Origin: Candidatus Diapherotrites archaeon ADurb.Bin253
Lineage (GTDB): Archaea; Nanobdellota; Nanobdellia; Pacearchaeales; GW2011-AR1
NCBI GenBank assembly: GCA_002069705.1
Contig: MWBV01000002.1
Coordinates: 2,691 to 66,690 of the forward strand
Length of the DNA stretch: 64,000 nt
Reading direction: 5' to 3'
Positions 1 through 34,784 of this stretch are shown piece by piece. Below the pieces are notes generated by a model. It was not told the origin of the DNA. It did no database searches and saw nothing but the letters and a program-made list of their open reading frames with translations. The first letter of the stretch is position 1; each line of letters starts with the position of its first letter. The translations under genes were made by a program, and so were the position numbers.

Positions 1-2403
1 ATGGTAATCATCAATACATTTAACATATAAATCTATTTCTGGATTCCATTCAATATAATGCTCTTTTCCATTTTCTGTGCTTAATTCATTTCCTTCTTCT
101 ATATTATAATTACAAGATGTTGTAGAATACACGCATCTAGCACTCTCATCAGTTATAATCTTAAGAGAATTAGAACTATCATCTTTAAATGCTCTCACAA
201 CCATTGGAGAAAGTAAATCTACTTCTACAGTGAAATTTATCAATGTTGTTGCAGTGTTTTCAGCAGAATCATAACATTTTATTAAATATTCATAAAATCC
301 TTGAGGCATATAAAATTCTTCAAAGTTTGTATTAAGGTATTCTCTACTTCTACCATTACTGAAAAGAGAATATGTAGGAGTAACTTGATTTTCAGAATAT
401 AAACATCTAGATTTACCTTCTTCTGCTCCTCCAATAGTTACAACTGAAAGCTCTATCTTTGCATTCTCTTCTCTTCCTATTATAGTTGTGCCATTTGCTC
501 TATCATTTATTCTTACACTCTGTATAACTAATTTGTTTGTTCCTTTCAAAACTATTTCATAAGGTCTTGAAGGAGTTCTTTTACTTTCTTTTTCAGGATT
601 TCCTTTAAATTCTGGATAATTTTTACATGCAACATAATACTTATTTTCAACACCGTCCTTAAATCCAGTTAAATTAGTTTGACATCCATAATCAAATCCA
701 ACTAAATACTCATTGATATTTTGAGAACACTTATCAAAGTCGTAACTCATGTAATTATAACTTGCTTCTTTAATATCCCACTTACAATCTGCAGGCCTAT
801 CTGTATAAACTTGGAAATTTTCTATAACACTTACATTGAATGGGATAAAAGAATCTTTAGCAGGGTTTGTTCCTACTATTTTAGGAGGATTTGTATTTAG
901 ACCTTTTTGTACACAGATTCGTATTTCATAATCTTGAGTGTTAATGTTTCCTCTTTGGTCTTTACATCTCACATAAAAGTTATATTTTCCTCCATTATTT
1001 AATATATATCCTGCATTTTCAAATGATTTTTCATCTGCAAAAACACTAGAAGGAATTTGTAATGTATGATTTTTTGTTTTCAAATTTTGTTCATTTAGAT
1101 AATCATTCATTGCATCAAATGCCTCTGCTGCTGTTCCAGCTTTTGGTTCAAGACTTATTTTACAATGAGCTTCTTCATTTGTAGTGAATGCTAATTTAAT
1201 AGGTGTATAAGTAGGAATACATCCTGCAGCTCCTCCACCCTCTCCTTCATAAACAATTCTTGCTCCTGCAGCAGAGATATCATATCTGAATTTATTGTCC
1301 TTGAAAACAGGTTCACCATTAATTTCTCTTGCAGGTGTTATTACAGGTGGAGAAATATCTCCTTTATTCACTTCAATACAAGTTTCATATTGACTTTCAT
1401 CATTTATCCATTCACAAGATGCACCATATGAACGACAAATATATTCACTACATCCACTCACTTGATTTTTTCCTGTTCCAACTTTTAATAAATTACATTT
1501 ACTGCATTCAGCTCCTCCTGATGGAGGTTGCCATAATTTAACTCTATAAGTATAAACTTCCTGAGCATAATTTTGATAAGAAAGTACCCCCCAAAGTAAA
1601 GCTGCACCAAGAACAAATCCTGCTGCCCATGGAACAGCAAGAAGGTTAACTGTTACCAAAACAATTCCAATTACTCCACCCACTCCTGCAGCAGTTAATA
1701 TATCTGCTTGATTTCTTTTACTAGCACCCATTAATTCAGTTATCCCCCAAACAACTGCAAATGCTACTGCTGCCCATCCAACTGCAGCAACAAAATCTCC
1801 TGCCATAGCTCCAATGCCTGTACTATCACCTGTACCCATTATAGTCCAATCCTTAAAAAATCCCTCTCTTATGGGTTTTATTGTATCTAAAAAAGCATCA
1901 TTTTCTGCCATTGCCTTTGCTAATTCTGCTTCAAATTTAGGGTCAAGAGGCATTAATCCAGACACTTGGGATGTTGGGCTACTAACAGGAGGCACCTTTG
2001 GAGATAATCCCGCCTTCATTAATTCTATTACTTCTTTATTATTTTTTATTTGTTGTATACCTGCTACCGTCGTTACTCCTTGACTTGCTAAAGCTACTGC
2101 TTTTGTAGATGTGTCTAAAAGATTACTTCCTCCTCCGTCCCCCCCTTTGTCTTTTTTAGGAACACAACATTGATATCCTGTAGGACATAAAGTGGTTTTC
2201 ACTATTCTTTCTCCATCACATGTTTGAGTAGAAGCTATACAATTCCCTCCTTTCTCTTGTCTACATTTGCTTCCATCTGATGCACTCACTGTTTCAATTG
2301 AACTTCCAACAATCCATGAAAATGCAATTGTTGCAATTACCAATATAAATATCTGCAAAATCGCAATTACCTTTGTTTCCTTTTTTTGTTTTTCTTTTTT
2401 CAT
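1..2403 (-). CDS. Large membrane/surface repeat protein, N-terminal 801 codons only (ORF open to the left window edge; absent from the ORF track because it has no stop inside the window)
   Basis: My own reverse-strand translation from ATG 2403-2401 stays open to position 1. It shows a signal anchor MKKEKQKKETKVIAILQIFILVIATIAFSW and a six-Cys module CRQEKGGNCIASTQTCDGERIVKTTLCPTGYQCC. A hydrophobic block follows (GDFVAAVGWAAVAFAVVWG ... VPWAAGFVLGAALLWGVL). Then come at least four repeats ending in Y-x-[VI]-x-C-x-D/N signatures (YNFYVRCKDQRGN, KYYVACKNYPE, YEYLIKCYDSAEN, DLYVKCIDDY). There is a 16-nt gap to the upstream gene. Confidence 0.7.
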   Translation of the reverse strand, partial: MKKEKQKKETKVIAILQIFILVIATIAFSWIVGSSIETVSASDGSKCRQEKGGNCIASTQTCDGERIVKTTLCPTGYQCCVPKKDKGGDGGGSNLLDTSTKAVALASQGVTTVAGIQQIKNNKEVIELMKAGLSPKVPPVSSPTSQVSGLMPLDPKFEAELAKAMAENDAFLDTIKPIREGFFKDWTIMGTGDSTGIGAMAGDFVAAVGWAAVAFAVVWGITELMGASKRNQADILTAAGVGGVIGIVLVTVNLLAVPWAAGFVLGAALLWGVLSYQNYAQEVYTYRVKLWQPPSGGAECSKCNLLKVGTGKNQVSGCSEYICRSYGASCEWINDESQYETCIEVNKGDISPPVITPAREINGEPVFKDNKFRYDISAAGARIVYEGEGGGAAGCIPTYTPIKLAFTTNEEAHCKISLEPKAGTAAEAFDAMNDYLNEQNLKTKNHTLQIPSSVFADEKSFENAGYILNNGGKYNFYVRCKDQRGNINTQDYEIRICVQKGLNTNPPKIVGTNPAKDSFIPFNVSVIENFQVYTDRPADCKWDIKEASYNYMSYDFDKCSQNINEYLVGFDYGCQTNLTGFKDGVENKYYVACKNYPEFKGNPEKESKRTPSRPYEIVLKGTNKLVIQSVRINDRANGTTIIGREENAKIELSVVTIGGAEEGKSRCLYSENQVTPTYSLFSNGRSREYLNTNFEEFYMPQGFYEYLIKCYDSAENTATTLINFTVEVDLLSPMVVRAFKDDSSNSLKIITDESARCVYSTTSCNYNIEEGNELSTENGKEHYIEWNPEIDLYVKCIDDYH

Positions 2404-2419
2404 TTTTATCTTTGGTTTA

Positions 2420-4696
2420 TTATAATTCTGGGAACACACAACAAACCATATTTGTAGAGCATTCTCCTGTTCCAACTTCTCCTCCTTCACAAGGATTTTC
2501 ACTCCTTCCTGCAGATATACAAGTTGCTCCAGGAGTTTCTAAACATGAATGGCTTATCATACTTATTGGCATTTCAGTTTCATATCTTTCTAAATCCCCT
2601 TTAACATATGCATTTCCCCTGTAAATTTTTTGTTCAACTGTAACGTTTTCTTTAACTTCTCCATTCTGTTTTAATTTTTGGAAAATAGCAGTTATTAATT
2701 CTGATTCAGGGTCACTATATCTTCCATTCATACTTGCTTTATACCCACAATCTCCCATAGATTTAGCTCTCTCTGTTATTGATTTAATCCATTCATCATT
2801 TGTTAAGTATATTGGGTAATCTCTTTCTTTATCTTCATCTTTTTCTTCATCTCCAGCACCAGTTGTACAATCATAATTTTTTCCAGTCACCTTTCCTGAA
2901 ACCCATTTATCTGGTTTTCCAGCTTTATGGCAATACTGCCCTCTTCTAGTGGATAAATAATATGAACTCACATCAGATGGAAGCTTAAATTCAGATTCAT
3001 CATAAAATTCAGTTAAAACATTATAAGCAGTGCACGCTCCTCCAATACTTGTGCAATGTATTTCTTCAGGATATTTTTTTTCTTCTCCTACTTTTTGATT
3101 GAATTCCATTCCATAATAAGGAATAGCATAACATCCATTTAAACATCTATGTGCAATTTCTTTATTTCCCCAACCATTCTCCCTGTTTCCCATATTCTCT
3201 CTACTTGATGTCCAATGAACTTCAAAAAAAGCAATTTCCTGAAAACCTGCTGAAGCACATATTATATTTCCTTGAGTTGTAGGGTTCCAAAAATCAAAAC
3301 CAGGAGCAATTAAAGGAACACATGAACCTTGAAATTCTTTTCTTTCTTCTTCAGAAGCAATTTCTAAATCCCACCTATATCCCGGAATCCATTTACATAA
3401 AGTGTTGTCTGATTCACATTGACTTCTCCTATCTATAACAGAACATGCTTTCCAAGGATTATATACGCAAGAAGCAATACTTCTTTTTGAATAATCATCT
3501 TTTCCTTGCATACACACACTATTTCTATAATCTCCACACTCTTCAACAATAACTTCCCCAAAAGAACACACTAATTTATAGTATCTGCTTCCAGGTAAAT
3601 TATATTTGTCTACATTTCTTAATTCATCTCTATCTTTTTTGAAAATTGCTCCTGTAGTTAAATTTCTATTAATTATTAATGTTCCTGCAGTTCCTTCACA
3701 CCAGCTCTCTCCGTGTTGATAAGTTACCCCCTTATATTTGCAACTTAAATCTCCACACACAAACCCCTCTTCATTATTTTGGGGCTTATTAGGTAAAGCA
3801 CTTTTCTCAACATCTTTGTAATTCTGACAAACTGTATTTGCAGTTGTATCACAATTTCCACAAGTTGTACTTCCACGAGCACCTACTTTACACAAAGAAT
3901 CATCATATTCTTCTATCATATAATTCCAATAATCAACATTATCATATTTGCTAGAATCATAAATATTAGCTAAATTTCCACACAAATCCATGTAATAAAC
4001 TTTATTGTCTTTACACACAGTATTTTTACTTTTAGCACAATTTGAAATAGAAATACCATTTATTGAAGCAGTGCATAAATGGTTTTCATAAAATCTTACA
4101 TCTATTTGATTAACTCCTGTAGGGGAATCTTGCAAATATTTAGAAAGTTCATTTACTTTTTCAGGAGTACATTCACTGTTTGTAGTTATTTTGCACGCTT
4201 TTTCATTTAAAGAACTCACAACACAAGCCCCTCTTTTAACAGTTGCTTGCATAACTTCACATTCTAATCTGGAACTAATATCTTTTCTTATTATTCCTTG
4301 AATTCCATGTTGAGACATTAAATTTTTACATTCAGTTTCTGTCATAAAATAAGCATCTTGTCCTAAAACGCAGCAATACTCCTGACATGCTGGAACTTCA
4401 TCTATATCTTTTTCACTCCAAACTCCTCCAGAATTGATACATTGCGCTTTAGGAGTATATTGACTACACTCCCCTGTCTTTGGATTAACACATGTTCCAT
4501 AACATTCTGGAACTAAATTACATGTCTCTTTATATAACCATATCTGATATGATGAGTCACATTGACTTTGACTTGTTGCAGCTTTACACCACATTTCACT
4601 CTCCTTTAACTTCTCACAACAAATAGCAGAAACATACATACTCCCAAATAAAACTAATGCCAAAGCAAAAACTGTTATCACACACTTTTTTTTCAT
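2420..4696 (-). CDS. Secreted cysteine-rich protein, 758 aa, unknown family
   Basis: Track ORF with signal peptide MKKKCVITVFALALVLFGSMYVSA. I count about 51 Cys spread over the whole length. The C-terminus is a six-Cys module CLETPGATCISAGRSENPCEGGEVGTGECSTNMVCC. There is a 1-nt gap to the upstream gene. Confidence 0.75.
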   Translation of the reverse strand: MKKKCVITVFALALVLFGSMYVSAICCEKLKESEMWCKAATSQSQCDSSYQIWLYKETCNLVPECYGTCVNPKTGECSQYTPKAQCINSGGVWSEKDIDEVPACQEYCCVLGQDAYFMTETECKNLMSQHGIQGIIRKDISSRLECEVMQATVKRGACVVSSLNEKACKITTNSECTPEKVNELSKYLQDSPTGVNQIDVRFYENHLCTASINGISISNCAKSKNTVCKDNKVYYMDLCGNLANIYDSSKYDNVDYWNYMIEEYDDSLCKVGARGSTTCGNCDTTANTVCQNYKDVEKSALPNKPQNNEEGFVCGDLSCKYKGVTYQHGESWCEGTAGTLIINRNLTTGAIFKKDRDELRNVDKYNLPGSRYYKLVCSFGEVIVEECGDYRNSVCMQGKDDYSKRSIASCVYNPWKACSVIDRRSQCESDNTLCKWIPGYRWDLEIASEEERKEFQGSCVPLIAPGFDFWNPTTQGNIICASAGFQEIAFFEVHWTSSRENMGNRENGWGNKEIAHRCLNGCYAIPYYGMEFNQKVGEEKKYPEEIHCTSIGGACTAYNVLTEFYDESEFKLPSDVSSYYLSTRRGQYCHKAGKPDKWVSGKVTGKNYDCTTGAGDEEKDEDKERDYPIYLTNDEWIKSITERAKSMGDCGYKASMNGRYSDPESELITAIFQKLKQNGEVKENVTVEQKIYRGNAYVKGDLERYETEMPISMISHSCLETPGATCISAGRSENPCEGGEVGTGECSTNMVCCVFPEL

Positions 4697-4697
4697 C

Positions 4698-5540
4698 TTA
4701 AATATTCACGTTTCCAAATCCAACAGGAGAAGCAAAGCTTCTTACTGCAAATCTGAAATCCTCTCCACTATTTATTTCAGAAACTACATAAATCTTTATA
4801 TCATTGTCTTTTCTGTGTTTTTCAACTCTAATATAAGGATTATCATACATATATGCTTCAGGTATTGAATCTCCTATATTCATTTCCCAAATAAGTATAT
4901 TCTTAGAAACTTCAATTATTTCATAAAAGCTACTTTTCATTCTTATCTCAAAATTTCTGTAGGTTTCACTCTCATCCCCTTTTGTTAATGTAAGTGTGCT
5001 ATTAAAATCAGTATAAACTTCTCCTGGAATTATTTGAATATTTGTTTTTCCCATCTTTAAATTAGTACGATAACCCTTGGATTCATAATCTTTAACCATA
5101 TTATCAAAACATGTTTTAATACTTTCATTTATAGAATCTAATACTTCCTGCTCAATATGTTCTTTTAAAAATGGTTCTTGATTGACACAAGGAACATCGT
5201 AATTATCGTCAGTATAACAAAGATATCTCACATATTTACCTTCATCTTCATAATTTTTTTTGTAAAAATAACCGCTATTTTTATTCATAACATAATTTCC
5301 TCCTTGAGAACTTATTATTTTTAAATTATCTTCAATATCTTCTTCAAGACAATCCTGAATAAATAATGCAGGATTTTTTGATCCACCACCTGAATTAGGG
5401 AATATTTTTGGATAATATAAATAAACTAATACCCCAAATGCAACAATGATTATTGCAATTATTATAAAAATAGTAACTTGGCCTCTAAAATTTTCTGGAA
5501 AAATTTTTAGTTTGCCTCTTTCTCCCTCTTTTAAACTCAT
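4698..5540 (-). CDS. Membrane-anchored protein with archaeal type IV pilin-like (class III) signal peptide, 280 aa
   Basis: The N-terminus is a charged segment followed by FRGQVTIFIIIAIIIVAFGVLVY. This matches the [KR]-G / hydrophobic pattern cleaved by archaeal prepilin peptidases. It is the first gene of a tightly packed three-gene minus-strand unit. Confidence 0.6.
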   Translation of the reverse strand: MSLKEGERGKLKIFPENFRGQVTIFIIIAIIIVAFGVLVYLYYPKIFPNSGGGSKNPALFIQDCLEEDIEDNLKIISSQGGNYVMNKNSGYFYKKNYEDEGKYVRYLCYTDDNYDVPCVNQEPFLKEHIEQEVLDSINESIKTCFDNMVKDYESKGYRTNLKMGKTNIQIIPGEVYTDFNSTLTLTKGDESETYRNFEIRMKSSFYEIIEVSKNILIWEMNIGDSIPEAYMYDNPYIRVEKHRKDNDIKIYVVSEINSGEDFRFAVRSFASPVGFGNVNI

Positions 5541-5604
5541 TTCTTTTTAATGTTTTAGTTGTTTAAAAACATTTCTTAATTTAAATTATATTAAATAAAT
5601 TTAT

Positions 5605-6330
5605 TTAATCTTCAGTTTCAACTCTTGGAGCAAGAATATAGGACAATTCCATACTTTCTGTTCTAACATCCATTTTTAATGGATGGTCATTAGCAAAATT
5701 CAAAATGGTTTTATCAGTTAATTTAGATGCTTTTACAAATTTCTGAAGATATTCTAAGCTGTATCTTGCCTTGCATGTTTCTGCATTTATATTAGCTTCA
5801 TCACTTGAAAACTCTGTTCTTGTTGAATTAAGTCCTTTAGCTTCAATCACAAATTTTTCGTCTTTCACAATAAATGAGCAAGCATCAGCAACAACTGCAC
5901 AATCTTCAACACAATCAATTAAATCCTGAGATTTCAATTCAACTCTTGCACTATATTCTAAATTAGGTATTTCTTTGTCTTCACTTTCAATATTAATTAA
6001 ACTTAAAACAAAATTTCTTCTTATCCTGTCATCCATTTGTATATAAAGTAAATTTTCTTTTCTTTCAAGAACAAGCTGTCCTCCACTTCTTTTCAATATT
6101 CTTTTAAGACTATCTAAATTTACACCCAAACTTTCATTTCCACTCTCAAATTCAGAAAAAGCTTTTTTTGGTATTTTCAAACTTACCATTGCAACATTTG
6201 CAGGGTCTATGGCAGTTATACTCAGTCCAAATTCATTTATTTTTATTTTTACCTCTGTTACTAATTCAGAGATTAAATCAATGGATTTAGATAATATAGT
6301 TGCATTATCAAGTTTAATTTTCATAATCAT
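5605..6330 (-). CDS. pcn: DNA polymerase sliding clamp PCNA
   Basis: The 241-aa product is collinear with archaeal PCNAs (ITAIDPANVAMVSLKIP, GVNLDSLKRILKR, C-terminal ILAPRVE). The alternative start MKIKL lies 2 codons downstream. Confidence 0.9.
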   Translation of the reverse strand: MIMKIKLDNATILSKSIDLISELVTEVKIKINEFGLSITAIDPANVAMVSLKIPKKAFSEFESGNESLGVNLDSLKRILKRSGGQLVLERKENLLYIQMDDRIRRNFVLSLINIESEDKEIPNLEYSARVELKSQDLIDCVEDCAVVADACSFIVKDEKFVIEAKGLNSTRTEFSSDEANINAETCKARYSLEYLQKFVKASKLTDKTILNFANDHPLKMDVRTESMELSYILAPRVETED

Positions 6331-6409: not shown

Positions 6410-7969
6410 ATGGAATCAAAAAAAATTTCATTTAAAGAGGAAAGAATAAGGAAAATAACTACACTATACTATTCTCAACCAGAAATTCAAAAAGCTATTT
6501 TTGAGTTTTCAAAAAATAGGGAGATTTGTCCGAGATATTTTGAGGGATTTGGAAAAAGACCAGATTCTTTTGAATATCCAGGAGATATATTTGAACTTGT
6601 AAAACGCGGAGCAACTTCCTTTAACTGTTCTGAAGAATTGTGGTCAGACCCTCTTAAAATACAAACAGGTATGAATGAAAAGCAATTAAATGAATTAAGA
6701 ATAGGATGGGATTTACTCATAGACATTGACTGTAAATATATTGATTTCAGTAAAAAAGCAACACAGGCAATACTCAAAGTTTTCAAAAATCACCACATAA
6801 AAAATTATGGAATTAAATTTTCAGGGAATAAAGGATTTCATATTATTCTCCCATTCAAGTCATTTCCCAAAGAGATTGCAGGAGAAAAAACAAAAGACCT
6901 CTTTCCAGAATTACCACGAAAGATTTTAGCTTATGTAAGATTTAAAGCAGAAGAAGAGATGAGAGATTTGATTTCTGAAGAAGAACTTGAGGCATTTAAA
7001 GACACAAAAATAAAAAAAGGAATAAAATGCAACAATTGCAAAGAGATTGCTCAGGAATATATATTAACAGAATATCTTTGCCCAAAATGTTTTAGGAGAG
7101 AACTAAAAAAAATATTTCATAACGAAAAAAAAGAATTTAAGTGTCCTGATTGCAGAACTCAATTTAAAATAAACAGAGCAGATAAGATTTATGAATGTAA
7201 AAAATGCAATATTTCTTCTAAAGATAAACCAGATAATTTCTCAAGACATATTGAAATAGATTTGTTTGATTTAATGGGGTTGGATTTAATTTTAATCTCT
7301 CCAAGACATTTATTCAGAATGCCTTACTCTCTTCACGAAAATAGTGGTTTATCCAGCATTGTTTTAAGCGAAGATGAATTAGAAAAATTTGACTTGAAAG
7401 ATGCATCTCCTCTAAATTTAAAAGTAAAAAATTTTATGCCAAAATGCAAAGAAAACGAAGCAGATTATCTTGTGAGAGAGGCCTTGGATTGGACAAAAAA
7501 TAATCAAATATCCTCGGGAGAATCAAAAGAAATTCTTAAGGGGAAATATGCAGATTTTAAACCAATAATTTTAGAATCAATTAAAGATGAAGATTTTCCT
7601 CCATGCATAAAAAATATCCTGAAAGGAATTTCAGACGGTAAAAAGAGAGGATTATTTGCTTTAATAAACTTTTTTCGTTCTGTTGGTATGAATAAAGAAG
7701 ATATGGAAAAAAGAATTTACGAGTGGAACAAGAAAAATGAGGTTCCTCTAAGAGAGGGATATCTACAAACCCAACTCTTATGGGCATACAGAAAAAAACC
7801 GATAATGCCTCCTAATTGCAAAGAATTTTATCAAGGATTTGGAGCATGTCAACCAAATGAATTTTGCAATCTAATTAAAAATCCAGTAAACTATTTGGTA
7901 AGAAAAAATTATATTTCAAACAATAAAAAAGAAAAGAAATCAACTAAAAAGATAAATAAAAATAATTAA
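6410..7969 (+). CDS. priS: DNA primase, apparent single-chain fusion of the PriS catalytic core with a PriL C-terminal Fe-S-like domain
   Basis: AEP catalytic motifs are present: DLLIDIDC (DxD) and FSGNKGFHIILPF (SGxxGxH). A zinc knuckle is visible (CNNCKE..CPKC and CPDC..CKKC). The C-terminal part FPPCIKNILKG..GKKRGLFALINFF..PPNCKEFY..CQPNEFC resembles the PriL-CTD FPPC motif region. Confidence 0.75.
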   Translation: MESKKISFKEERIRKITTLYYSQPEIQKAIFEFSKNREICPRYFEGFGKRPDSFEYPGDIFELVKRGATSFNCSEELWSDPLKIQTGMNEKQLNELRIGWDLLIDIDCKYIDFSKKATQAILKVFKNHHIKNYGIKFSGNKGFHIILPFKSFPKEIAGEKTKDLFPELPRKILAYVRFKAEEEMRDLISEEELEAFKDTKIKKGIKCNNCKEIAQEYILTEYLCPKCFRRELKKIFHNEKKEFKCPDCRTQFKINRADKIYECKKCNISSKDKPDNFSRHIEIDLFDLMGLDLILISPRHLFRMPYSLHENSGLSSIVLSEDELEKFDLKDASPLNLKVKNFMPKCKENEADYLVREALDWTKNNQISSGESKEILKGKYADFKPIILESIKDEDFPPCIKNILKGISDGKKRGLFALINFFRSVGMNKEDMEKRIYEWNKKNEVPLREGYLQTQLLWAYRKKPIMPPNCKEFYQGFGACQPNEFCNLIKNPVNYLVRKNYISNNKKEKKSTKKINKNN

Positions 7970-8012: not shown

Positions 8013-11000
8013 ATGAAAAGAGAAGTGACATTGTTGTTAGTTTTTACATTATTTCTAATTCCTTTATCAACTATTAATGCAGCAGATGAATTAAAAGGTC
8101 TTGAATCTGCTTATACCTGCCTTGATAATAGAATTAATTTAACAGGATGTTCTGCTCTTAAATTTGAGGAAAAAGTTTTTTCTTATCTAGCTTCAGGAAA
8201 CTGTGGAAATGAATTATCTTTAGAAAATCGTTCTAATGAGTGTTGGCCAAAATCAGGATGTACATTAAAATCCACTGCGCAGGCAATATTGGCTTTAAAT
8301 TCCAGAGCAGATACAAAAAAAGCTGAAAACTGGCTTTTAAGACAAACAACATCGCCTGAAAATATTGAATGGTTTTTGGAAATAGAATCTAAATCAGGAG
8401 CTACTTTATGTGATATTTCTTATTCTGGAGCAACTTATAAAGTTACAATAGGAGAAGATAGAAAAATTTCTTCTAATGCAGGAAATCATTTGACTTTAGC
8501 ACAAGACGGATATTTATTAAGCATTTCTAATAAGATACACAACAAAGAAATTGAAATTTCTTGTGATAAACCATTTTTAACAACACTTCTTTTTATAAAA
8601 AAAGGTACTTCTACAATTCATGTTTCAAATAGAGTTATTAATTCAGGACCAGGTGGAAAAACAATAGAAAAAGTTGATTCATTTTGTTTTGCACAAGCAG
8701 GAAAATGTAACTATGAAGGGAGTTTATGGGCTGCTCTTGTTCTATATTCTTTAGGTTATGAGGAAGAAATTTTAAAATTCACCCCTTATTTAATCACAAT
8801 GAAAGACGAGACATCTAACCAAATTTATATCCCAGAATCTTTTTTATATTATGTCACAGGAAAATTCCAAATTGACCTTCTTCAGCTACAAAGACTTAAC
8901 TCATATTGGGAAGAATCAGGAAATAAATATTATGACACTGCCATTGCATTACTTCCTCTCTCTGGTGATAACCTACCTCAAAAATCTAGTTCAAAATCCT
9001 GGCTTTTATCTGTACAAGATAAAAATGGATGTTGGAACAATGGAAATATAAGAGATACTGCATTTTTACTTTATTCAGTATGGTCAAAAAATCCCCTTTC
9101 TCCTGTTGGACGTTGTGATTATTATTATGATTGTCCAGACATAGATTGTAAATCTAAAAGTTGTGTAAATGGGAAATGCGTCTATGAATCTGATGGAAGT
9201 TGTGTTTATGCTAAATGTACAAAAGATTCTCAATGTGATGAATATGATTCTACTTCAAAAGAAAAAATTTGCGGAAGCAAAAATACTGTTTATCGCGAAA
9301 AATATGATTATTCTTGTAATCTCGCTAAGGGAATATGTGAAGCAGAGGTAACAGATGAAGTAGTTGAAACTTGTTCTGATTCAAAAAGATGTGAAGATGG
9401 AAAATGTATTCAAGATAGTTGTATAGTATCTCTTTTTTGTGATGAGGGATATAAATGTGTAAAAGGAACTTGTATTAAAACAGGAGGTTCGTGTACTGAT
9501 GATTCTGATTGTTCAGATTATGAATATTATGGAACTCCATATTGTAGTAAAGATAAATCTGCTGTTTATCAAGATTATTACCCTTATTATTGTGATACAA
9601 AAAAAGAGTTATGTTCTCCTAAAACTAAAATAGAAGAGGAGCTTGAAGTTTGTGGTACATCAAAAGAATGTTATGAAGGAACTTGTTTAATTATAGAATG
9701 TTCTGATTCAAATCCTTGCGAATCAGGTTACAAATGCCATGAAGGAAGCTGTGTACCTGAAACAGTCTGTTACACTAAGAGTGATTGTCCTAAGAAAGAA
9801 TGTTATGAGGTTTCTTGTAATTCTGGAACCTGCATTTACTCTTATGTTTGCGATGATAAAGAGTGTAATGAGGATAAGGACTGTTCTCACATGAATACAG
9901 AAGGAATAACATTTTGTGGAGGGAAAGATGATAATGATGTTTATATTGAGGTTTTTGAGCACACTTGTAAAGATAATCTTTGCGTTTCAAGTACAACAGA
10001 AAAATTAGTAAAAGAATGTGACGATGCAACAGAAGAGTGCAATTGGGGAGTATGCGAAGAGGCTGATAATAAAAATTATTGTAGTGGTGATATTGACTGT
10101 TATGGTTATGAATACTGTGATGTTTCTGGAGTTTGTTCTCCTAGGTCTTGCATAGATGATTATGATTGTTATGGAGGAGTATGTTCAACAAGCGGATATT
10201 GTGAATCTCCTGATAGTTGCGAAGATGCAGGATATTATTGTACCACTCCATCAACTTGTAAGGGAAATATAATGCAGGAATATTCTTGTAATAAAGGTAT
10301 TTTAAAGTGTTGTGATACAGAACCCCCTTTAATGCCTTGTGAAGATTTGGGTGGAAAAATATGTTCTGAAGAACAATCTTGTGTTGGTGGAGCAGAAATG
10401 AGATCATCAGATGAATTAGATTATGGTGAAACCTGTTGTGTTGGAGGAATATGTGATGAAGGAGGTTCAACAGAAGATATCAATTGCATAGATAAAGAGG
10501 GAGAGTGCAGGTCCTCTGATTCTTGTAAAAAGGGAGAATCTGAAAAAGATTATATTTGCGGGGATAATCAAATTTGTTGTATTAAGGATAATGATAAACC
10601 TAAAAAAGGATGGGTGTTGATAGTTATCTTGCTGATTTTAATATTTTTAGTTGTTATAGGAATAGTTTTCAGAGATAAATTGAGAACTGAATGGATAAAA
10701 TTAAAAGATAAGATGAGTGGGAAAAAATCAAAGAAAAAGCCTGATATGCCTATGACAATGCAACCAACTTCTCAAGGAAGAATTTTACCTAGAAGAATTT
10801 TACCTCCAGGGCAACAGCCTTCAGGACCTCCTCAACAAACCAGATTCCCTATGAGAACAATGGGACAGCCTATTTCAGGACAATCTCCAGCCCAACCCCT
10901 TCCAGTACCTAAACCAACTTTTACAGGACAAACTAAGCCTTCTACTCCTAAAAAACCAGAAGAAAAATCTAAAGGTGGAGAATTAGATGATGTTTTAAAG

Positions 11001-11024
11001 AAGTTGAGAGAAATGGAAAAATAG
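8013..11024 (+). CDS. Chimeric surface protein, 1003 aa: signal peptide, alpha/alpha-toroid-like domain, long Cys-rich repeat region, TM helix, Pro/Gln-rich cytoplasmic tail
   Basis: Signal peptide MKREVTLLLVFTLFLIPLSTINA. The N-terminal ~350 aa carry terpene-cyclase/prenyltransferase-like repeat signatures (STAQAILAL, GSLWAALVLYSLG, YDTAIALLPL, QDKNGCWNNGNIRDTAFLLYSVW). Dozens of Cys sit in repeated modules. TM helix WVLIVILLILIFLVVIGIVF. The tail is PDMPMTMQPTSQGRILPRRILPPGQQPSGPPQQ.... Confidence 0.7.
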   Translation: MKREVTLLLVFTLFLIPLSTINAADELKGLESAYTCLDNRINLTGCSALKFEEKVFSYLASGNCGNELSLENRSNECWPKSGCTLKSTAQAILALNSRADTKKAENWLLRQTTSPENIEWFLEIESKSGATLCDISYSGATYKVTIGEDRKISSNAGNHLTLAQDGYLLSISNKIHNKEIEISCDKPFLTTLLFIKKGTSTIHVSNRVINSGPGGKTIEKVDSFCFAQAGKCNYEGSLWAALVLYSLGYEEEILKFTPYLITMKDETSNQIYIPESFLYYVTGKFQIDLLQLQRLNSYWEESGNKYYDTAIALLPLSGDNLPQKSSSKSWLLSVQDKNGCWNNGNIRDTAFLLYSVWSKNPLSPVGRCDYYYDCPDIDCKSKSCVNGKCVYESDGSCVYAKCTKDSQCDEYDSTSKEKICGSKNTVYREKYDYSCNLAKGICEAEVTDEVVETCSDSKRCEDGKCIQDSCIVSLFCDEGYKCVKGTCIKTGGSCTDDSDCSDYEYYGTPYCSKDKSAVYQDYYPYYCDTKKELCSPKTKIEEELEVCGTSKECYEGTCLIIECSDSNPCESGYKCHEGSCVPETVCYTKSDCPKKECYEVSCNSGTCIYSYVCDDKECNEDKDCSHMNTEGITFCGGKDDNDVYIEVFEHTCKDNLCVSSTTEKLVKECDDATEECNWGVCEEADNKNYCSGDIDCYGYEYCDVSGVCSPRSCIDDYDCYGGVCSTSGYCESPDSCEDAGYYCTTPSTCKGNIMQEYSCNKGILKCCDTEPPLMPCEDLGGKICSEEQSCVGGAEMRSSDELDYGETCCVGGICDEGGSTEDINCIDKEGECRSSDSCKKGESEKDYICGDNQICCIKDNDKPKKGWVLIVILLILIFLVVIGIVFRDKLRTEWIKLKDKMSGKKSKKKPDMPMTMQPTSQGRILPRRILPPGQQPSGPPQQTRFPMRTMGQPISGQSPAQPLPVPKPTFTGQTKPSTPKKPEEKSKGGELDDVLKKLREMEK

Positions 11025-11027
11025 ATT

Positions 11028-11504
11028 TTATTTCTTTTTTTCTTGGTCTTTATTTTCTGGTAATAATTCTTTAAGCTTTTTTTGCATCTCTGAATTTTGA
11101 AACTGTAAAACTCTTGCAACTTCTTCATATCCATGAAGCCTTCTTGTTAATTCACTTAATATATCTGTCCAACCATTATTTGTAAGAGCTATCAATTCTG
11201 GTTCAACAACTTCAACATGTGCAGGCATATACTTAAACATTATAATCGCTAAATATAAAATATCTTCAACTTCTAAATCAACTTCAGCAAAAGTAGTGTA
11301 AAAATCTTTTGTGTCTTTTATTAATACAGGTTCATTTATCTTTTTGTTAGTTACTTTAACTCCTTTTTCTTCTCCCATCTTTTTTATTAAACCTTCTAAT
11401 GTAGTTACAAGTTGTTCTGCTGGTCTTCCGATTATTTCAAGTATGATTGTAGAACTAATTACTTTTTTTCCTGAATCTTCTTTATTTGAACTCTGTTTTT
11501 TCAT
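11028..11504 (-). CDS. Hypothetical protein, 158 aa
   Basis: Track ORF with protein-like composition. It is the last gene of a minus-strand trio and overlaps the upstream ComEA-like gene by 23 nt. No motif recognised. Confidence 0.5.
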   Translation of the reverse strand: MKKQSSNKEDSGKKVISSTIILEIIGRPAEQLVTTLEGLIKKMGEEKGVKVTNKKINEPVLIKDTKDFYTTFAEVDLEVEDILYLAIIMFKYMPAHVEVVEPELIALTNNGWTDILSELTRRLHGYEEVARVLQFQNSEMQKKLKELLPENKDQEKKK

Positions 11505-12087
11505 TTTTTTGTTTCTTCATTTTAAACAAGAAAAAAACCAAAATGCCTAAAAATACTAGCCCATAAATTGCAAATTTGTTCTTGTCTAATTCTTTTTTGT
11601 ACGGTTCTGTTTTTATACTTTTTGGAGATATTGGAGAGAGTATTATTGGCTTTATTTCTTGTTCCTCTTGTATTTTATTTTCTTCAGGATTTACACTAAT
11701 TTTTTTTATTTGTTTTATTGTTTCTTTTTTATCTTCCTTTTCTTCATCCTCTTTATCTTCCCCAGATTCATCCTCTTCTTCATTATCTTCTTGTTCTTCC
11801 CCATCTTCCTCTTCATCACTTACACAAGCAAGTCCTTGCTGTTTTATATTAGAAAGTGTAACATCACCTATCCCAACAACATTTAACAAGTCATCTAATT
11901 TATTGAAAGGACGAGAATTAATTATTGCCTGTGCTTTAACAGGACCTATTCCTGCAAGTTTGTCCAACTCTTCTAATGAAGCAGTATTAATATCAATTTG
12001 ATTCTTTTGACAGGAAGCAGATATCAAGCTAAAATTTATAATTGAAAATATGAAAAATACAATGAAAAAAAGAAATTTCTTTTTCAT
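11482..12087 (-). CDS. ComEA-like helix-hairpin-helix DNA-binding protein with signal peptide, acidic linker and C-terminal membrane anchor
   Basis: Signal peptide MKKKFLFFIVFFIFSIINFSLISASC. A tandem HhH follows: IDINTASLEELDKLAGIGPVKAQAIINSRPFNKLDDLLNVVGIGDVTLSNIKQ (ComEA signature). Then a D/E-rich linker and a C-terminal TM FAIYGLVFLGILVFFLF followed by KMKKQK. Confidence 0.7.
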   Translation of the reverse strand: MKKKFLFFIVFFIFSIINFSLISASCQKNQIDINTASLEELDKLAGIGPVKAQAIINSRPFNKLDDLLNVVGIGDVTLSNIKQQGLACVSDEEEDGEEQEDNEEEDESGEDKEDEEKEDKKETIKQIKKISVNPEENKIQEEQEIKPIILSPISPKSIKTEPYKKELDKNKFAIYGLVFLGILVFFLFKMKKQKNEKTEFK

Positions 12088-22999: not shown

Positions 23000-24268
23000 C
23001 TATTCTCCCCAATTTTCTAACGCTCTTTTTAATTCTTCATGGTTTTCAGAATATTTTTTAAGTGATTGTTTTTTCATAAACGCATCAATTGCTTGTCTCA
23101 TTGCTTTTGCTCCAGCAATTGTTCCATCAGGATGTCCATGAACCCCACCTCCTGCTTGAACTACAATGTTATTTCCCATTGCCTTTAAAATCTTAGGTAC
23201 AATTCCAGGATAAACTCCTCCAGATGCAACTCCTAAAATGGGTTCGATATTATACCATTTTTGTTCCAAATTCATTTTTGTTTGAGGAGTAAATTGCATT
23301 TCAATTTCTTCTTGTATATGAAGAATTTCTTCTTTGTTTCCTGTCATCTTTCCATATACTGTTCCAATATGTAATGTATCTACTCCAACCATTCTTGCCA
23401 ATTGAGCAATAACTTCCATAGACATTCCATGGTCTGGATTTCTATCATATATTGCATGTCCTGCCCTGTGTGCATGAATAGGAAGCTTTGTAAAATTTCT
23501 TGCAGTTTGCAATGCTCCCCATCCTAATGTTAATATATCCAACATGATATAATTCCCCCCATTCTCTTCAACAAATTTTATTCTTCTTTTCATTTCTTCA
23601 GATTCTGCAGTGCAATTAATTAAGTATGCTTTTTTCTCTCCTGTTTTTTTCTCAGCATCTTTACATGCCTTGATAGTTAATAAAAATCTTTTTTTGAAAT
23701 TATTAAAATTCTGATTAGTTAAATTTTCATCGTCTTTAACAATATCACATCCTCCAATCCATGCTTCATAAGCGACCCTTGCATGATTTTTTTCATCAAG
23801 TCCAACTTTTGGTTTTATTATTGTTCCCACCAAAGGTCTTTTGGGAATCTTCATTAATTTTCTTAATCCATAAATTCCATATCTTGGACCCTTAAAACTT
23901 TTCAGCATTTTTTCAGGAATTCTCAAGTCTTCCCACATAAGCCCTTTTACTGATTTCATTCCATATATATTTCCCCCAATACTCGAGAGTATTTCAGGAA
24001 CATTTCCTAATTCAAACAATTCAATAGGATAAGCAATTCTCACTCTCTTTTCTTTTTCATTCATATAATATATTTTCGGAGATAATTTTTCAGCAACTTT
24101 CTTATTCATTGTTCCAATATTTGTCCATGTTCCAATAGAGCTTTCTCCAGCAACTTCTTCAGAAACTTTTTTTAAAGTATATCCTTTTGAGGGAGTTATT
24201 TTATATTGACAAATAACATCTGTCTTCTTTGGTTTGTATTTTAAATTAAGAAATTTATTTTGCATCAC
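23000..24268 (-). CDS. rbcL: Ribulose-1,5-bisphosphate carboxylase large subunit, archaeal form III-like
   Basis: 422 aa with GGCDIVKDDENL (carbamylated Lys region), PIHAHRAGHA and GGGVHGHPDG. The size and lack of a small-subunit gene fit form III. Confidence 0.85.
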   Translation of the reverse strand: MMQNKFLNLKYKPKKTDVICQYKITPSKGYTLKKVSEEVAGESSIGTWTNIGTMNKKVAEKLSPKIYYMNEKEKRVRIAYPIELFELGNVPEILSSIGGNIYGMKSVKGLMWEDLRIPEKMLKSFKGPRYGIYGLRKLMKIPKRPLVGTIIKPKVGLDEKNHARVAYEAWIGGCDIVKDDENLTNQNFNNFKKRFLLTIKACKDAEKKTGEKKAYLINCTAESEEMKRRIKFVEENGGNYIMLDILTLGWGALQTARNFTKLPIHAHRAGHAIYDRNPDHGMSMEVIAQLARMVGVDTLHIGTVYGKMTGNKEEILHIQEEIEMQFTPQTKMNLEQKWYNIEPILGVASGGVYPGIVPKILKAMGNNIVVQAGGGVHGHPDGTIAGAKAMRQAIDAFMKKQSLKKYSENHEELKRALENWGE

Positions 24269-24576: not shown

Positions 24577-25080
24577 TTATTGATTTAGTTTATTTTTCTT
24601 TTCACTTTTACTTGTTCTTTTGTTTCCATCCTTCATTTTTTTACTTGTCCAGTAAGAGACATATATAAGAACTACCAATGCAATACTTAAAATTATAAAT
24701 CTCACCAAATCATCCATATAATTCCAGTATCTACTTGTTCCATAAATAATGAACATCAAACTCCCAAACATCAATCCCCCTGAAATAGAATTTGTACTTA
24801 TAAATATTGTACATCCAACAATAACTAAAATTCCAAATATTAAACTTATTATAAACATTTTTTTAGAATAATCTTTGTTCGCTTCATTATATTTATCCGA
24901 ACACTCTCTATAAACTTGTGTATAATAAGATTCATTGATATAATCTGTTTCTGAAAATTCTTGATAATCGCAATAATCTTCGTATTTCGGTTCATCATAT
25001 ATTAATTTTGTTCCAAAAACACAAAACATCAAAAATATTATTGCTATCGCAATTCCAAGTATAATCTCTTTTATTTTCAT
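24577..25080 (-). CDS. Membrane protein, 167 aa
   Basis: Track ORF with an N-terminal anchor and three further hydrophobic helices. Its start context is identical to that of the upstream paralog gene. Confidence 0.5.
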   Translation of the reverse strand: MKIKEIILGIAIAIIFLMFCVFGTKLIYDEPKYEDYCDYQEFSETDYINESYYTQVYRECSDKYNEANKDYSKKMFIISLIFGILVIVGCTIFISTNSISGGLMFGSLMFIIYGTSRYWNYMDDLVRFIILSIALVVLIYVSYWTSKKMKDGNKRTSKSEKKNKLNQ

Positions 25081-25095
25081 TTTATAGATTTATGT

Positions 25096-25644
25096 TTATC
25101 TTGCTTTAGATGTTGCTGTAAAAAGTATGTTATCATATTCCTGATATACTCCATCAATTTCACTTTTAATTTCTATATTATAACTAACAGTACACAAAGG
25201 AGATCCAGTAGGAATCTCGAAGTATATCTTTGTAACATAATAATCTCCAAAACTTATAGGAATATTATCTTCAGATTTTCCATTTGAAATCCAATCTAAT
25301 ACATTTTCATCACCACATGTACTCTCAGCAACAACAACATTATAAGAAAATATTGAAACATCAGAAGAATTTTCTAATAAGTTTCTTATCCCAAGTGCAA
25401 TAGCTTCTTCTTGTCCTTGTTTTATTATTAAACTCCTTGATTTAGGATATATTGCCGACTTATCTTCATCTGAACCAAAAGCTTTTCCAATTTCATTTGC
25501 TGACTGTTGTTCTGTTAAAGGTAATACTCTCTCCTTGGCAGAGTCTCTTTCAACACCTTCTTTTAAAATTAATTCGTTTACTAAAATAGCTATAATTACT
25601 AAAGATACTATTACAAGAATTATAATCTTGGTTTTTCTTTTCAT
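25096..25644 (-). CDS. Membrane-anchored secreted protein, paralog B of a tandem pair
   Basis: It shares NEIGKAFGSDE, AIYPKS, IKQ.QEEAI.LGIRNLL, STCG.ENVL.WI, GDYY.TKIYFEIPTG.PLCTV and a TSKAR end with the 25660 gene. Confidence 0.6.
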   Translation of the reverse strand: MKRKTKIIILVIVSLVIIAILVNELILKEGVERDSAKERVLPLTEQQSANEIGKAFGSDEDKSAIYPKSRSLIIKQGQEEAIALGIRNLLENSSDVSIFSYNVVVAESTCGDENVLDWISNGKSEDNIPISFGDYYVTKIYFEIPTGSPLCTVSYNIEIKSEIDGVYQEYDNILFTATSKAR

Positions 25645-25659
25645 TTTATAGATTTATGT

Positions 25660-26229
25660 TTATCTTGCTTTAGATGTTATAACAAAAGGTATGTTGTCAT
25701 ATGCATACCATTGGTTATTTCTATTAGCCCTTACTTCAATTCTGTATTTAACAGTACACAAAGGAGCTCCAGTAGGAATCTCGAAGTATATCTTTGTATC
25801 ATAATAATCTCCAACACTTATAGAAATATCTTCTTCTTTAGATCCAATCTTTATCCAACTTAACACATTCTCATTTCCACATGTACTTTGAGCAACTTTA
25901 ACTTCATATGAAAATTTTTGAGCTCCAGAAGTACCTGTCAATAAGTTTCTTATCCCAAGTCCAATAGCTTCTTCTTGTTCTTGTTTTATTGTTAGACGAC
26001 CAGATTTAGGATATATTGCTAATTTAGCTTCATCTGAACCAAAAGCTTTTCCAATTTCATTTGTCAATTGTTGTTCTGTTAAATCCATTGCACTTTTAGA
26101 TGTATTAAATATTGTTTTAGTCAATATTAACCCTAAAACCAAAGCAGACATTAAAAGAACTATAGTAACTATTGTTCCAACACTCATCTCCATTGCTGCT
26201 CTTTTGGATTTCATGTTCTTCATCACCAT
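25660..26229 (-). CDS. Pilin-like (class III signal peptide candidate) secreted protein, paralog A of a tandem pair
   Basis: The N-terminus KSKRAAMEMSVGTIVTIVLLMSALVLGLIL resembles archaeal type IV pilin signal peptides. The rest is paralogous to the 25096 gene. Confidence 0.6.
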   Translation of the reverse strand: MVMKNMKSKRAAMEMSVGTIVTIVLLMSALVLGLILTKTIFNTSKSAMDLTEQQLTNEIGKAFGSDEAKLAIYPKSGRLTIKQEQEEAIGLGIRNLLTGTSGAQKFSYEVKVAQSTCGNENVLSWIKIGSKEEDISISVGDYYDTKIYFEIPTGAPLCTVKYRIEVRANRNNQWYAYDNIPFVITSKAR

Positions 26230-29910: not shown

Positions 29911-29924
29911 TTGAAATCTTCAAA

Positions 29925-32740
<2,816 letters not shown>

Positions 32741-32782
32741 CTGAAAATTTCATTTTAAATTAATTTTCATTATTTTAAGTGG

Positions 32783-32801
32783 GATTTTCTGTTACTTATT
32801 T
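32783..32801 (-). other. 5' arm of 23S processing stem
   Basis: GATTTTCTGTTACTTATTT is the perfect 19-nt complement of 29892-29910 across the whole 23S gene. Confidence 0.6.
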
Positions 32802-32978
32802 CATTGAATATAATTTGAGTTATATTCTCAAATTGATTCCGAAAAATCTTCGGAACCAGTGTTGGTTTTTATACCAACAAGTTTCACGTGAGTGAATATG
32901 ATTTGTGATTCATGGTTTTATTTTCCATAGTGGGATTTTCTAAATCCCCAGTTAATTAATCTTATTAGAAAACTAAAA

Positions 32979-33049
32979 TGGACTCGCCGGGAATCGAACC
33001 CGGATCTCATGCGTGCAAGGCAAGTGTTCTACCATTGGACTACGAGCCC
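32979..33049 (-). tRNA. tRNA-Ala (UGC) in the 16S-23S spacer
   Basis: The reverse complement reads GGGCTCG TA GTCC AATGGTA GAAC A CTTGC CTTGCAC GCATG AGAT CCGGG TTCGATT CCCGG CGAGTCC A. The anticodon is TGC and the G3:U70 alanine identity pair is present. No encoded CCA. Confidence 0.9.
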
Positions 33050-33122
33050 TTAATGATTTACTACTTTATTATCGGTAAATCTTCGTTGTTTATTTTAGCC
33101 CGCATGGGTTTTTAAGTTTTCT

Positions 33123-33144
33123 GTATAAGATGAGTATGTAGAAG
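33123..33144 (-). other. 3' arm of 16S processing stem
   Basis: The reverse complement of GTATAAGATGAGTATGTAGAAG is CTTCTACATACTCATCTTATAC. This nearly matches CTTCTACATACCTCATACCTTAG at 34785-34807. Confidence 0.5.
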
Positions 33145-33192
33145 TTCATTAATTATAATTTGTTTCTTGCCTTCCTCTAATGTCAAAAATAT

Positions 33193-34636
33193 AGGAGGTA
33201 ATCCAACTGCAGGTTCCCCTACAGTTACCTTGTGACGACTTAACCTACCTTGTCACATCAAGGTTCTCCCCCGAAGGGTTTCACCATAACATAACTCGGT
33301 TGGTTTGACGGGCAGTGTGTGCAAGAGACAGTGACTTATTCACCGTTCGCTGCTAACAAACGATTACTACGGATTCCAGTGTCACGAGGCTGAGTTTCAA
33401 ACCTCGATCTAAACTGAGATGGACTTTAAGAGATTAGCTTCGCCTTTCGGCGTTGCGTCCCGTTGTATCCACCATTGACGCGCGCGTGTTGCCCAGGGGA
33501 TTCAGGCTGTACTCACCTAACGTAGCCCGCACTTTCATCCTCGTTACCAAGGCAATCTGTATATTGTACACGTAGTAAATATACATGCGGGTCTTGCCTG
33601 TTACCTGATTTAACAGGTCACCTCACGGCACAGGCTGACGTTGGCCATGCAACTCCTCTCAGCGTGTCAGGTAAGCCCTTCAGACTGACCTTCATCCTGC
33701 TGTCGCTCCTGGTGAGGTTCACGGTGTAGAATCTAATTAAACCGCACGCGTCACTCGTTGTAGTGTCTCCCCGCCAATTCCTTTAAGTTTCGATCTTGCG
33801 ACTATACTTCCCAGGTAGCTCACTCTTCGCCTTCGCTTCAGCACTGAAACCTCCCGAAGAGGCCCCAATGTTTAGTGAGCAGTGTTTACTGCCAGGACTA
33901 CACGGGTATCTAATCCCTTTTGCGCCCCTAGCCTTCATCCCTTACTGTCAGAACTGTCCTCGTAAGATGCCTTCGCTGTTGTTAGTCCGTCTGGGATTAA
34001 CACATTTTACCGCTACTCCAAACGTACTTCTTACGTCTTCCAGTCTCTAGCTTAACAGTACTTCTTGCCCGCTCCATATTTGAGACATGGAATTTCACAA
34101 GAAACTTATTAAGCAAGCTACGGATGTTTTAGACCCAATAATGATGGCTGCGACTTGGACCGCGAGTATTACCGCGGCGGCTGGCACTCGTCTTACCCAG
34201 TCCTTATTCGCCAAACTTTTTACATTTGGCAAAAGCTTTTCATATGAAAAGCACTCTGACTCAATCTGTCATACTTTCGTACATTGCAGAAAATTCCTAA
34301 CTGCTGCACCCCGTAGGGCTGGGAATAGTGTCTCAGATTCCCTCTCAGGGCCTCTCCGCTAAGAGCCCTTACGGATCATTGGCTTGGTGGGCCTTTACCC
34401 CGCCAACAACCTAATCCGCCGCAGCCCCATCCTTAAGCACGAATTTGAGAGATGAATCATTCCAGGGTACATCTCCTATCGAGTATTAACCTCAGTTTCC
34501 CGAGAGTATCCTCGACTTAAGGGTAGGTTAGCTACGTGTTACTGAGCAGTTCGCCTTTCACTTCCGAAGAAACAAAAAGACTTGCATGTCTAAGTGCAAA
34601 TCAGAGAGCCGCAGCCGCTAGCAGGATCAACTAGAT
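33193..34636 (-). rRNA. rrs: 16S rRNA (about 1.44 kb, short)
   Basis: The reverse strand 5' end is AAUCUAGUUGAUCCUGCUAGCGG. The 515 region is GUGCCAGCCGCCGCGGUAAUAC. The 915 region is AGGAAUUGGCGGGGAGACAC (archaeal type). The 3' end is GGGGAACCUGCAGUUGGAUUACCUCCU. Confidence 0.9.
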
Positions 34637-34784
34637 TTAAACATATCATGAATTTTACTCGATAAATCGAAAAAATCTCCTTGCGCAATTTCCTTGTAAG
34701 AAAGAAAACTACTTCACACATCTCCTAACTATTGGCTTTGAACATTAAATTGGTTGACTAAAAAACATTTACAAATGATGACTG

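Follow-up and report, generated by a model that had tools for sequence, protein, structure and literature searches.

The abundant, uncultured Woesearchaeota and Pacearchaeota have minimal genomes and are thought to be attached to hosts. A group of tightly packed genes lies at the left end of the DNA analysed here, a stretch of 64,000 nucleotides (nt) from Candidatus Diapherotrites archaeon ADurb.Bin253 (contig MWBV01000002.1; hereafter the window). Three minus-strand open reading frames (ORFs), called here genes 1, 2 and 3, are separated by gaps of 1 nt (gene 1/gene 2) and 16 nt (gene 2/gene 3). An original prediction, made from the letters of the window without database searches, had described them as a three-gene operon encoding a pilin-like anchor protein, a cysteine-rich secreted protein and a giant polytopic repeat protein of a small episymbiotic-type archaeon, and had proposed that they build a cell-surface attachment or host-interaction apparatus. 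The three frames, including the one that stays open past position 1, and both gaps agree with the coordinates that we obtained (Table 1); the encoding of exported and membrane surface proteins in one tightly packed unit is supported as well, and the origin from a DPANN archaeon is supported by the fused PriS-PriL primase, the archaeal rRNA and a G+C content of about 30%. We report here that these genes belong to a larger conserved cluster, found in hundreds of species and including five prepilin-like families and a large secreted protein without structural relative, which makes it a concrete candidate for the surface machinery of this clade. The reading that we favour, and to which we give about an even chance, is that the cluster encodes a type-IV-filament-like surface module of minor pilins and adhesin in Woesearchaeota/Pacearchaeota-type Nanoarchaeota.

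The three genes belong to a conserved seven-gene cluster

The locus was extended to the left on public contigs encoding the 758-amino acid (aa) gene 2 protein residue for residue. On one of them (L002), the DNA of which is 99.6% identical to the window across the three-gene stretch, gene 3 is complete and encodes 822 aa, of which only the final 21 residues are missing from the window; the third protein, announced as giant, is therefore of ordinary size. Beyond the end of gene 3, the public contig carries four more co-oriented genes of 151, 330, 178 and 182 aa, the ends of which abut or overlap, so that the predicted transcription unit counts seven genes instead of three and the window would hold its 5' part. 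The whole cluster occupies about 8 kb of a very small genome. Gene 7 is followed by a divergent gene encoding an HVO_A0114-type winged-helix protein and then by an S-layer gene (PF05124). It should be noted that the start of gene 3 differs between gene callers, giving 846 aa (L004 12222-14762; L001 12219-14687) versus 822 aa (L002 12294-14762); the 846-aa version overlaps gene 2, and the N-termini of the homologs favour the MKKEKQKK start at window position 2403. Regarding the other end of the unit, the AT-rich spacer upstream of gene 1 is the likely promoter region of the operon. A scan for sigma-70 promoters and terminators, which is unsuited to archaea, gave no more matches than were found in shuffled sequence.

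ORFs were then called in 86 loci and classified with iterated profiles, the counts of runs and gaps given here being those of the 82 loci from other species, many of which are truncated. The run 1-2-3 was found in 51 loci and the run 4-5-6-7 in 41, in 38 of which the regulator gene follows, and all seven genes were consecutive in 28 loci. The canonical order is PCNA, genes 1 to 7, the regulator gene on the opposite strand, the S-layer gene and two genes for small anchored proteins. Gene 1 invariably has gene 2, or else a gene 2-3 fusion described below, immediately downstream of it. The median gap is 1 nt between genes 1 and 2 (55 loci), 1 nt between genes 4 and 5, -7 nt between genes 5 and 6 and -4 nt between genes 6 and 7. 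The order from PCNA through the seven genes to the regulator and the S-layer gene persists in relatives in which gene 2 is only 31-44% identical, and gene order, the loss of which in relatives would have spoken against the original prediction, thus proved to be strongly conserved.

Still further downstream, the products encoded in relatives are a DedA/UptA-like protein and pacearchaeosortase (NF033505), along with its PACE-CTERM substrate, which is a putative S-layer protein (NF033506). These envelope genes stand 3' of the S-layer gene at 19539-21755 in L009 and at 19444-22345 in L072, and likewise in L042 and L048, with E-values of 1e-62 or lower for NF033505 and of 1e-121 for NF033506. The cluster is therefore placed in a cell-envelope island of the core genome of the clade. 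Gene-3 relatives were detected in at least 343 genomes in a scan with one genome per species, and the 80 gene-3 genomes listed are labelled Woesearchaeota, Pacearchaeota, Nanoarchaeota or Nanoarchaeia, with the exception of a few unclassified "archaeon" and one "bacterium". More than 330 homologs were found for gene 2, and the gene 1 profile matched 1670 database clusters (90% identity); neither set includes a member of a curated family, and the few named entries are 'hypothetical'. The gene 3 profile matched 4579 representatives, counting one for each 50%-identity cluster, and E<=1e-30 was reached by 1653 of these.

Two departures from the canonical layout were observed. Many loci, several of them labelled Pacearchaeota, carry a tandem duplication in which gene 1 and a gene 2-3 fusion of 1210-1360 aa precede another copy of gene 1, with a short gene 2 (about 500-600 aa) and then gene 3 behind it (L026, L031, L035, L043, L048, L061, L062, L068, L071, L072, L074, L080-L082 and others). 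In L045 and L069, a lone gene-3 paralog is found amid ribosomal and RNA polymerase genes.

Sequence searches of Pfam, NCBIfam and PDB with all seven proteins and two family alignments returned nothing above curated cut-offs or at a significant E-value, in agreement with the original prediction that genes 1-3 match no family that can be named. The few sub-threshold matches (DUF4625, Y_Y_Y and Big_13 for one immunoglobulin-like (Ig-like) repeat, antibody heavy chains for gene 2) were discarded as noise. Homology to characterised S-layer or housekeeping families was looked for and none was found; genes 1-3 do not match the S-layer family PF05124 (S_layer_C), the S-layer gene being a separate downstream gene in the related loci. 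The cluster defines at least seven unnamed protein families, and our literature search found no paper on the seven-gene cluster, on its prepilin-like families or on the gene 2-3 fusion.

Five families with prepilin-like N-termini

The products of genes 1, 4, 5, 6 and 7 share a common N-terminal layout in which a short basic leader (median length of 6-12 residues) ends with Gly or Ala at position -1 and is followed by Gln, in most cases, at +1 and by a hydrophobic helix of about 20 residues. Archaeal class-III (prepilin) signal peptides have this layout. The N-terminus of gene 1 in the window reads ...ENFRGQVTIFIIIAIIIV, with leader and putative cleavage point arranged as ENFRG↓QVTIFIIIAIIIV (the arrow stands for the predicted cut), and four cysteines are conserved in the family alignment.

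Strict patterns were counted over the distinct N-termini of each family, 42-76 in number. The class III signal peptide of gene 1, for which the original prediction had relied on one sequence, holds for the family, as 66 of 76 distinct N-termini carry [KR][G/A/S]Q and a hydrophobic stretch, the conserved form being [KR][KR][G/A]↓QVTIFIIIAI. The corresponding conserved N-termini are [KR][G/A]↓QMKLSFGMIFSIILI for family 4 (strict motif in 28/48), [KR]G↓YLEISFSWIFAIIVGA for family 5 (29/48), [KR][G/A]↓QMKIQQMAFMLIAV for family 6 (40/45) and [KR][G/A]↓QEEMVGFALIIIIV for family 7 (36/42). In families 1 and 7, +1 is Gln in all members that bear the motif, and in families 6 and 4 in nearly all of them; in family 5 this position is mostly Tyr, the others being Phe, Ala or Gln. 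Families 4 and 5 are homologous across about 165 columns (hhalign), and the remaining families are alike in the N-terminal region only. A profile search of PDB gave nothing but a non-significant match to a Geobacter pilin (E 1.1). Gene 1 thus encodes a prepilin-like protein, as had been proposed, and not an anchor acting alone, since it is one of five paralogous or analogous families of this type.

A further prepilin-like gene is present in the window, apart from the cluster. Its 189-aa product begins with MKSKRA↓AMEMSVGTIVTIVLLM, its N-terminal region scores 21 and 18 bits against the hidden Markov models of families 4 and 5, and it has no match in Pfam or NCBIfam. This protein is a candidate for an additional pilin of the same system. 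Two small membrane-anchored ORFs come after this gene.

Genes 2 and 3 are linked by gene fusion

The product of gene 2 contains 51 cysteines, as had been claimed, 50 of which lie in the mature part that follows a predicted Sec-type signal peptide (VSA↓ICCEK). This part comprises N-terminal CC..WC..C modules, the conserved motifs CGNCD, HGESWC, PGFDFW and LGDCGYK, and a C-terminal six-Cys module at residues 718-753. The number of cysteines is even in 103 of the 109 mature homologs, in which it ranges from 34 to 54. An AlphaFold2 model obtained with 47 homologs was confident (pLDDT 85, pTM 0.64), and Foldseek comparison of this model with PDB gave a best E-value of 0.19, which is not significant, and nothing significant in BFVD, a library of viral structures. 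On this model, gene 2 would have a fold without known relative in PDB, BFVD, Pfam and NCBIfam. The label 'bactofilin CcmA' attached to one gene-2 homolog in the databases is unsupported.

The elements that had been described in gene 3 were all recovered. It begins with a basic N-terminus and a hydrophobic anchor; a six-Cys module (residues 47-80) and a low-complexity linker come next, ahead of a block of three predicted helices (198-224, 229-251 and 259-274). The structure model is good only from residue 300 on, where a small CxxC..CxxxxC module precedes four Ig-like beta-sandwich domains; the Foldseek matches of gene 3, 375 in number at E<=1e-3, are generic: arrays of Ig, FN3 and cadherin domains in tandem, adhesins of bacteria and S-layer proteins. 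After the helix block, 20 or 22 cysteines are present in 28 of 28 homologs. We also considered gene 3 as a sixth prepilin and dropped this possibility because only 31 of 89 N-termini fit even a loose motif; the N-terminus is treated here as a signal anchor. A metagenomic protein of 5994 aa (P0412) contains 31 copies of the Ig-like repeat of gene 3 (profile positions 485-611).

In distant relatives, proteins of 1230-1340 aa carry the entire gene-2 module, with all its landmark motifs, fused ahead of the helix block and the Ig array, and this fusion directly follows a copy of gene 1 in 18 of the 82 loci. The fusion and the even cysteine counts tie the two genes together, and we infer that their products act as one unit. 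Cysteine counts that shift in steps of two match full disulfide pairing, which suggests that gene 2 and the C-terminal part of gene 3 are both, most likely, extracellular and disulfide-bonded ectodomains. The same six-Cys module recurs in this region, at the C-terminus of gene 2, at the N-terminus of gene 3 and twice in a neighbouring 1003-aa protein. The idea that the copies in genes 2 and 3 serve as matched docking tags was abandoned given their weak co-occurrence (both in 6 cases, one only in 3+3, neither in 40).

A proposed type-IV-filament-like surface module

A role at the cell surface, as proposed originally, is a reasonable reading, which the set of pilin-like genes and the gene 2-3 fusion now sharpen, and the best-supported description of the cluster is that of a type-IV-filament accessory module, the families of which are unnamed and which includes one fold without known relative. 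From the features described above, we infer the cleavage, assembly, topology and biological role of its products, including a role in host contact, as follows. An A24-type prepilin peptidase would cut after the Gly or Ala of the products of genes 1, 4, 5, 6 and 7, and their mature N-terminal helices would pack together, giving a short filament, a pseudopilus or else a tip complex that primes a pilus, the assembly of which would be driven by an ATPase and a platform protein encoded elsewhere in the genome. The proteins encoded by gene 2, with about 25 disulfides, and by gene 3 would form one unit, a disulfide-rich head on a membrane-embedded helix block with a four-Ig stalk of about 10 disulfides. 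The gene 1 product would probably be the adaptor between this unit and the pilin-like set, because it is always encoded just before gene 2 or the fusion. Such a structure could span the space between membrane and S-layer, with its disulfide-rich head exposed on the cell surface to make contact with other cells or surfaces.

Several known systems can be compared with this arrangement. Archaeal type IV pilus loci typically encode five or more minor pilins together with an adhesin and an S-layer-like Ig protein, and the pilins cognate to the nanoarchaeal pilus ATPase were reported as unidentified in an earlier genomic survey; both points fit the type-IV-filament-like reading (PMC4858521). In Methanococcus maripaludis, the substrates of the peptidase EppA have a leader of 5-13 residues ending in Gly, with Gln at +1 and Glu at +5, and there is precedent for pilin operons that stand apart from the ATPase locus (PMC3875500). 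The cluster resembles the Epd pili of this species (archaeal type IV filament 'system 1') in that several distinct proteins that carry class-III signal peptides are encoded together, the short leader ends in Gly or Ala with Gln at +1, adhesin-like and S-layer-like Ig proteins are present, and the pilin genes can be distant from the ATPase locus. By contrast, the cluster proteins do not match DUF361/Class_IIIsignal or another pilin family in sequence and lack the conserved +5 Glu; they are larger and rich in cysteines, a polytopic membrane protein is included, and the cluster contains no peptidase, ATPase or platform gene.

The fimU-pilVWXY1Y2E operon of Pseudomonas aeruginosa encodes five pilin-like proteins and a large Sec-exported non-pilin protein, with no ATPase in the operon, and for its products, as for the type II secretion pseudopilins GspH-K, a role in priming the filament and capping its tip is assumed. 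The cluster has the same composition of about five pilin-like genes and one large Sec-exported non-pilin protein without ATPase. The resemblance stops at this level, as the operon belongs to another domain of life and there is no similarity of sequence or fold: for the PilY1-type features (beta-propeller, vWA, DUF2341), gene 2 gave no Pfam match and propeller Foldseek matches with TM-scores of 0.1 or less only, and the bacterial operons have no counterpart of the Ig-stalk membrane protein.

A number of observations weigh against a filament. Pfam searches of the window, which covered its larger ORFs and its membrane ORFs, brought up no filament ATPase, platform protein or A24 peptidase, nor was one seen in the 86 loci, and a regular expression for the Walker-A motif (T2SE-type) found nothing in any ORF of these loci. 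None of the Pfam pilin families (PF04021 Class_IIIsignal, PF07790 Pilin_N etc.) was matched even at E<=1 by single proteins or by 46 members each of families 1 and 5, and conservation of Glu at +5, as in EppA substrates, is lacking, Glu or Gln being found instead at +2/+3 in families 5 and 7 or at +5/+6 in family 6. Gene 3 is polytopic, and its three predicted helices would leave the Ig array on the inner side of the membrane if all of them cross it; an extracellular array would require the third, 16-residue helix to be interfacial and not membrane-spanning. According to one preprint, DPANN genomes lack the components of type IV pili; FlaI, FlaJ and FlaK have been annotated in Woesearchaeota (PMC8407392). 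Finally, the cluster is a conserved feature of the core genome and is not variable, as host-specific adhesins often are. Its core status and its position in the envelope island beside the S-layer gene fit a structural role in the envelope as well as a role in host contact.

Alternative explanations

Such a structural role is the basis of a rival explanation that we regard as rather unlikely, in which no filament is made and the cluster forms an envelope scaffold. The N-terminal segments would be uncleaved signal anchors, and the seven proteins would build a membrane complex below the S-layer which supports it, spaces it or helps in its assembly, a role comparable to that of a membrane stalk protein or of the 'secretion or membrane-remodelling complex' predicted beside archaeal S-layer-like proteins. 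In its favour, the cluster always adjoins the S-layer gene and the envelope island, its setting next to PCNA and primase is a housekeeping one, it is present in so many species genomes, no ATPase was seen in any locus, and the gene 3 product is integral to the membrane and bears an Ig stalk. Gene 3 resembles the S-layer-like Ig membrane proteins of archaeal pilus and 'secretion system' loci (arCOG02487/arCOG02884; Makarova et al. 2015, 2016, 2019), which also have few transmembrane helices, an extracellular array of Ig-like domains and an S-layer gene nearby. Ig-bearing membrane proteins have been predicted to be parts of secretion systems (PMC5898192), and Makarova, Wolf and Koonin listed as enigmatic, and as a priority among unknowns, the DPANN-specific secreted family NEQ255 (cls.004306), 'often encoded next to ... 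S-layer-like proteins' (PMC6393860); this family may correspond to one of the seven genes. On the other hand, gene 3 has no match to PF07760/DUF1616, the family of the predicted components of the archaeal secretion complex (arCOG02884/COG4743), and no MoxR ATPase, vWA or DUF4350 partner is listed among the neighbours. A plain anchor also leaves unexplained why a near-invariant [KR][G/A]Q directly precedes the helix in five separate families.

A bolder proposal starts from the same prepilin-like set. The cluster would encode an undescribed envelope-spanning contact organelle of Woesearchaeota and Pacearchaeota, a pseudopilus made of 'minor-type' prepilins only and bearing the disulfide-knotted gene 2-3 head of novel fold, possibly working without a classical pilus ATPase; it would take the place of the missing device for attachment or exchange in these host-dependent archaea. 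We consider this proposal unlikely.

The presence of a secreted ComEA-like protein with an HHH_3 domain in the window raises the question of whether the pilin-like proteins serve in uptake. In this quite improbable explanation, a short, retractile competence-like pseudopilus would pull DNA or other polymers through the S-layer and feed a cell that is unable to make nucleotides. Members of the ComEA-like family also lie upstream of the cluster in seven loci that belong to four other relatives, one species accounting for four of these loci, and there are as many pilin-like genes as in ComGC-GG. The RuBisCO of the window, presumably the form III enzyme that in DPANN is tied to nucleotide salvage, would be in keeping with such a diet. 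Nevertheless, the ComEA-like gene lies outside the operon with two opposite-strand genes between, neither a ComEC-like channel nor an ATPase turned up among the scanned ORFs of the window, and nothing in competence systems corresponds to genes 2 and 3.

That the gene 2-3 unit is a fusogen or pore-former directed at the host membrane, in a device for cell-cell fusion or cytoplasmic bridges, is highly improbable: cytoplasmic connections between DPANN archaea and their hosts are described in the literature and the unit does join a disulfide-rich ectodomain to a membrane anchor, but comparison with pore-formers and with the class II fusogen fold (HAP2, EFF-1, viral E proteins) gave no significant match, only noise (Dengue E/alphavirus E of 5 or more, TM-score 0.04 or less), with nothing in BFVD.

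Genomic surroundings of the cluster

The features of the window that are mentioned in the text are collected in Table 1. The pairing of PCNA and primase with the cluster is conserved across the clade. The 1003-aa protein encoded on the other side of the primase gene has no match in Pfam or NCBIfam, and its family holds the position beside the primase gene in 20 loci. The ComEA-like gene and the gene annotated PF27325 both recur upstream of the cluster in relatives, and this pair may be relevant to DNA uptake.

Table 1. Position of the cluster genes and of other features in the 64,000-nt window
Feature	Position	Strand	Remarks
Gene 3	2403 to beyond position 1	minus	801 of 822 aa (801 codons) inside the window
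Gene 2	4696-2420	minus	758 aa, Sec-secreted, disulfide-rich; ORF call
Gene 1	5540-4698	minus	280 aa, prepilin-like; ORF call
AT-rich spacer, likely promoter region	5541-5604	minus	64 nt between PCNA stop codon and gene 1 start codon; contains TTTATTTAATATAA
PCNA gene	5605-6330	minus	flanks the cluster upstream
Fused small-plus-large subunit DNA primase (PriS-PriL)	6410-7969	plus	
1003-aa protein	8013-11024	plus	80 Cys, Sec signal, C-terminal transmembrane anchor, Pro/Gln-rich tail; two six-Cys modules
Gene annotated PF27325 (MJ0538 family)	11028-11504	minus	annotation of an identical copy on public contigs
Secreted ComEA-like protein	11482-12087	minus	signal peptide and HHH_3 (E 3e-15)
RuBisCO large subunit	23000-24268	minus	PF00016, E 4e-89; little other metabolism in view
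Small membrane-anchored ORF	24577-25080		after the 189-aa prepilin-like gene
Small membrane-anchored ORF	25096-25644		after the 189-aa prepilin-like gene
Further prepilin-like gene	25660-26229	minus	189 aa
16S-tRNA-23S rRNA operon	29922-34637	minus	spacer tRNA at 32979-33049
Presenilin/signal-peptide-peptidase homolog	58404-59306	plus	nine transmembrane segments; PF06550, E 6e-12

It should be noted that the presenilin homolog is a GxGD-type aspartyl protease and not an A24 peptidase. The rise of the G+C content to 0.43-0.44 at 30-34 kb is due to the rRNA operon located there.

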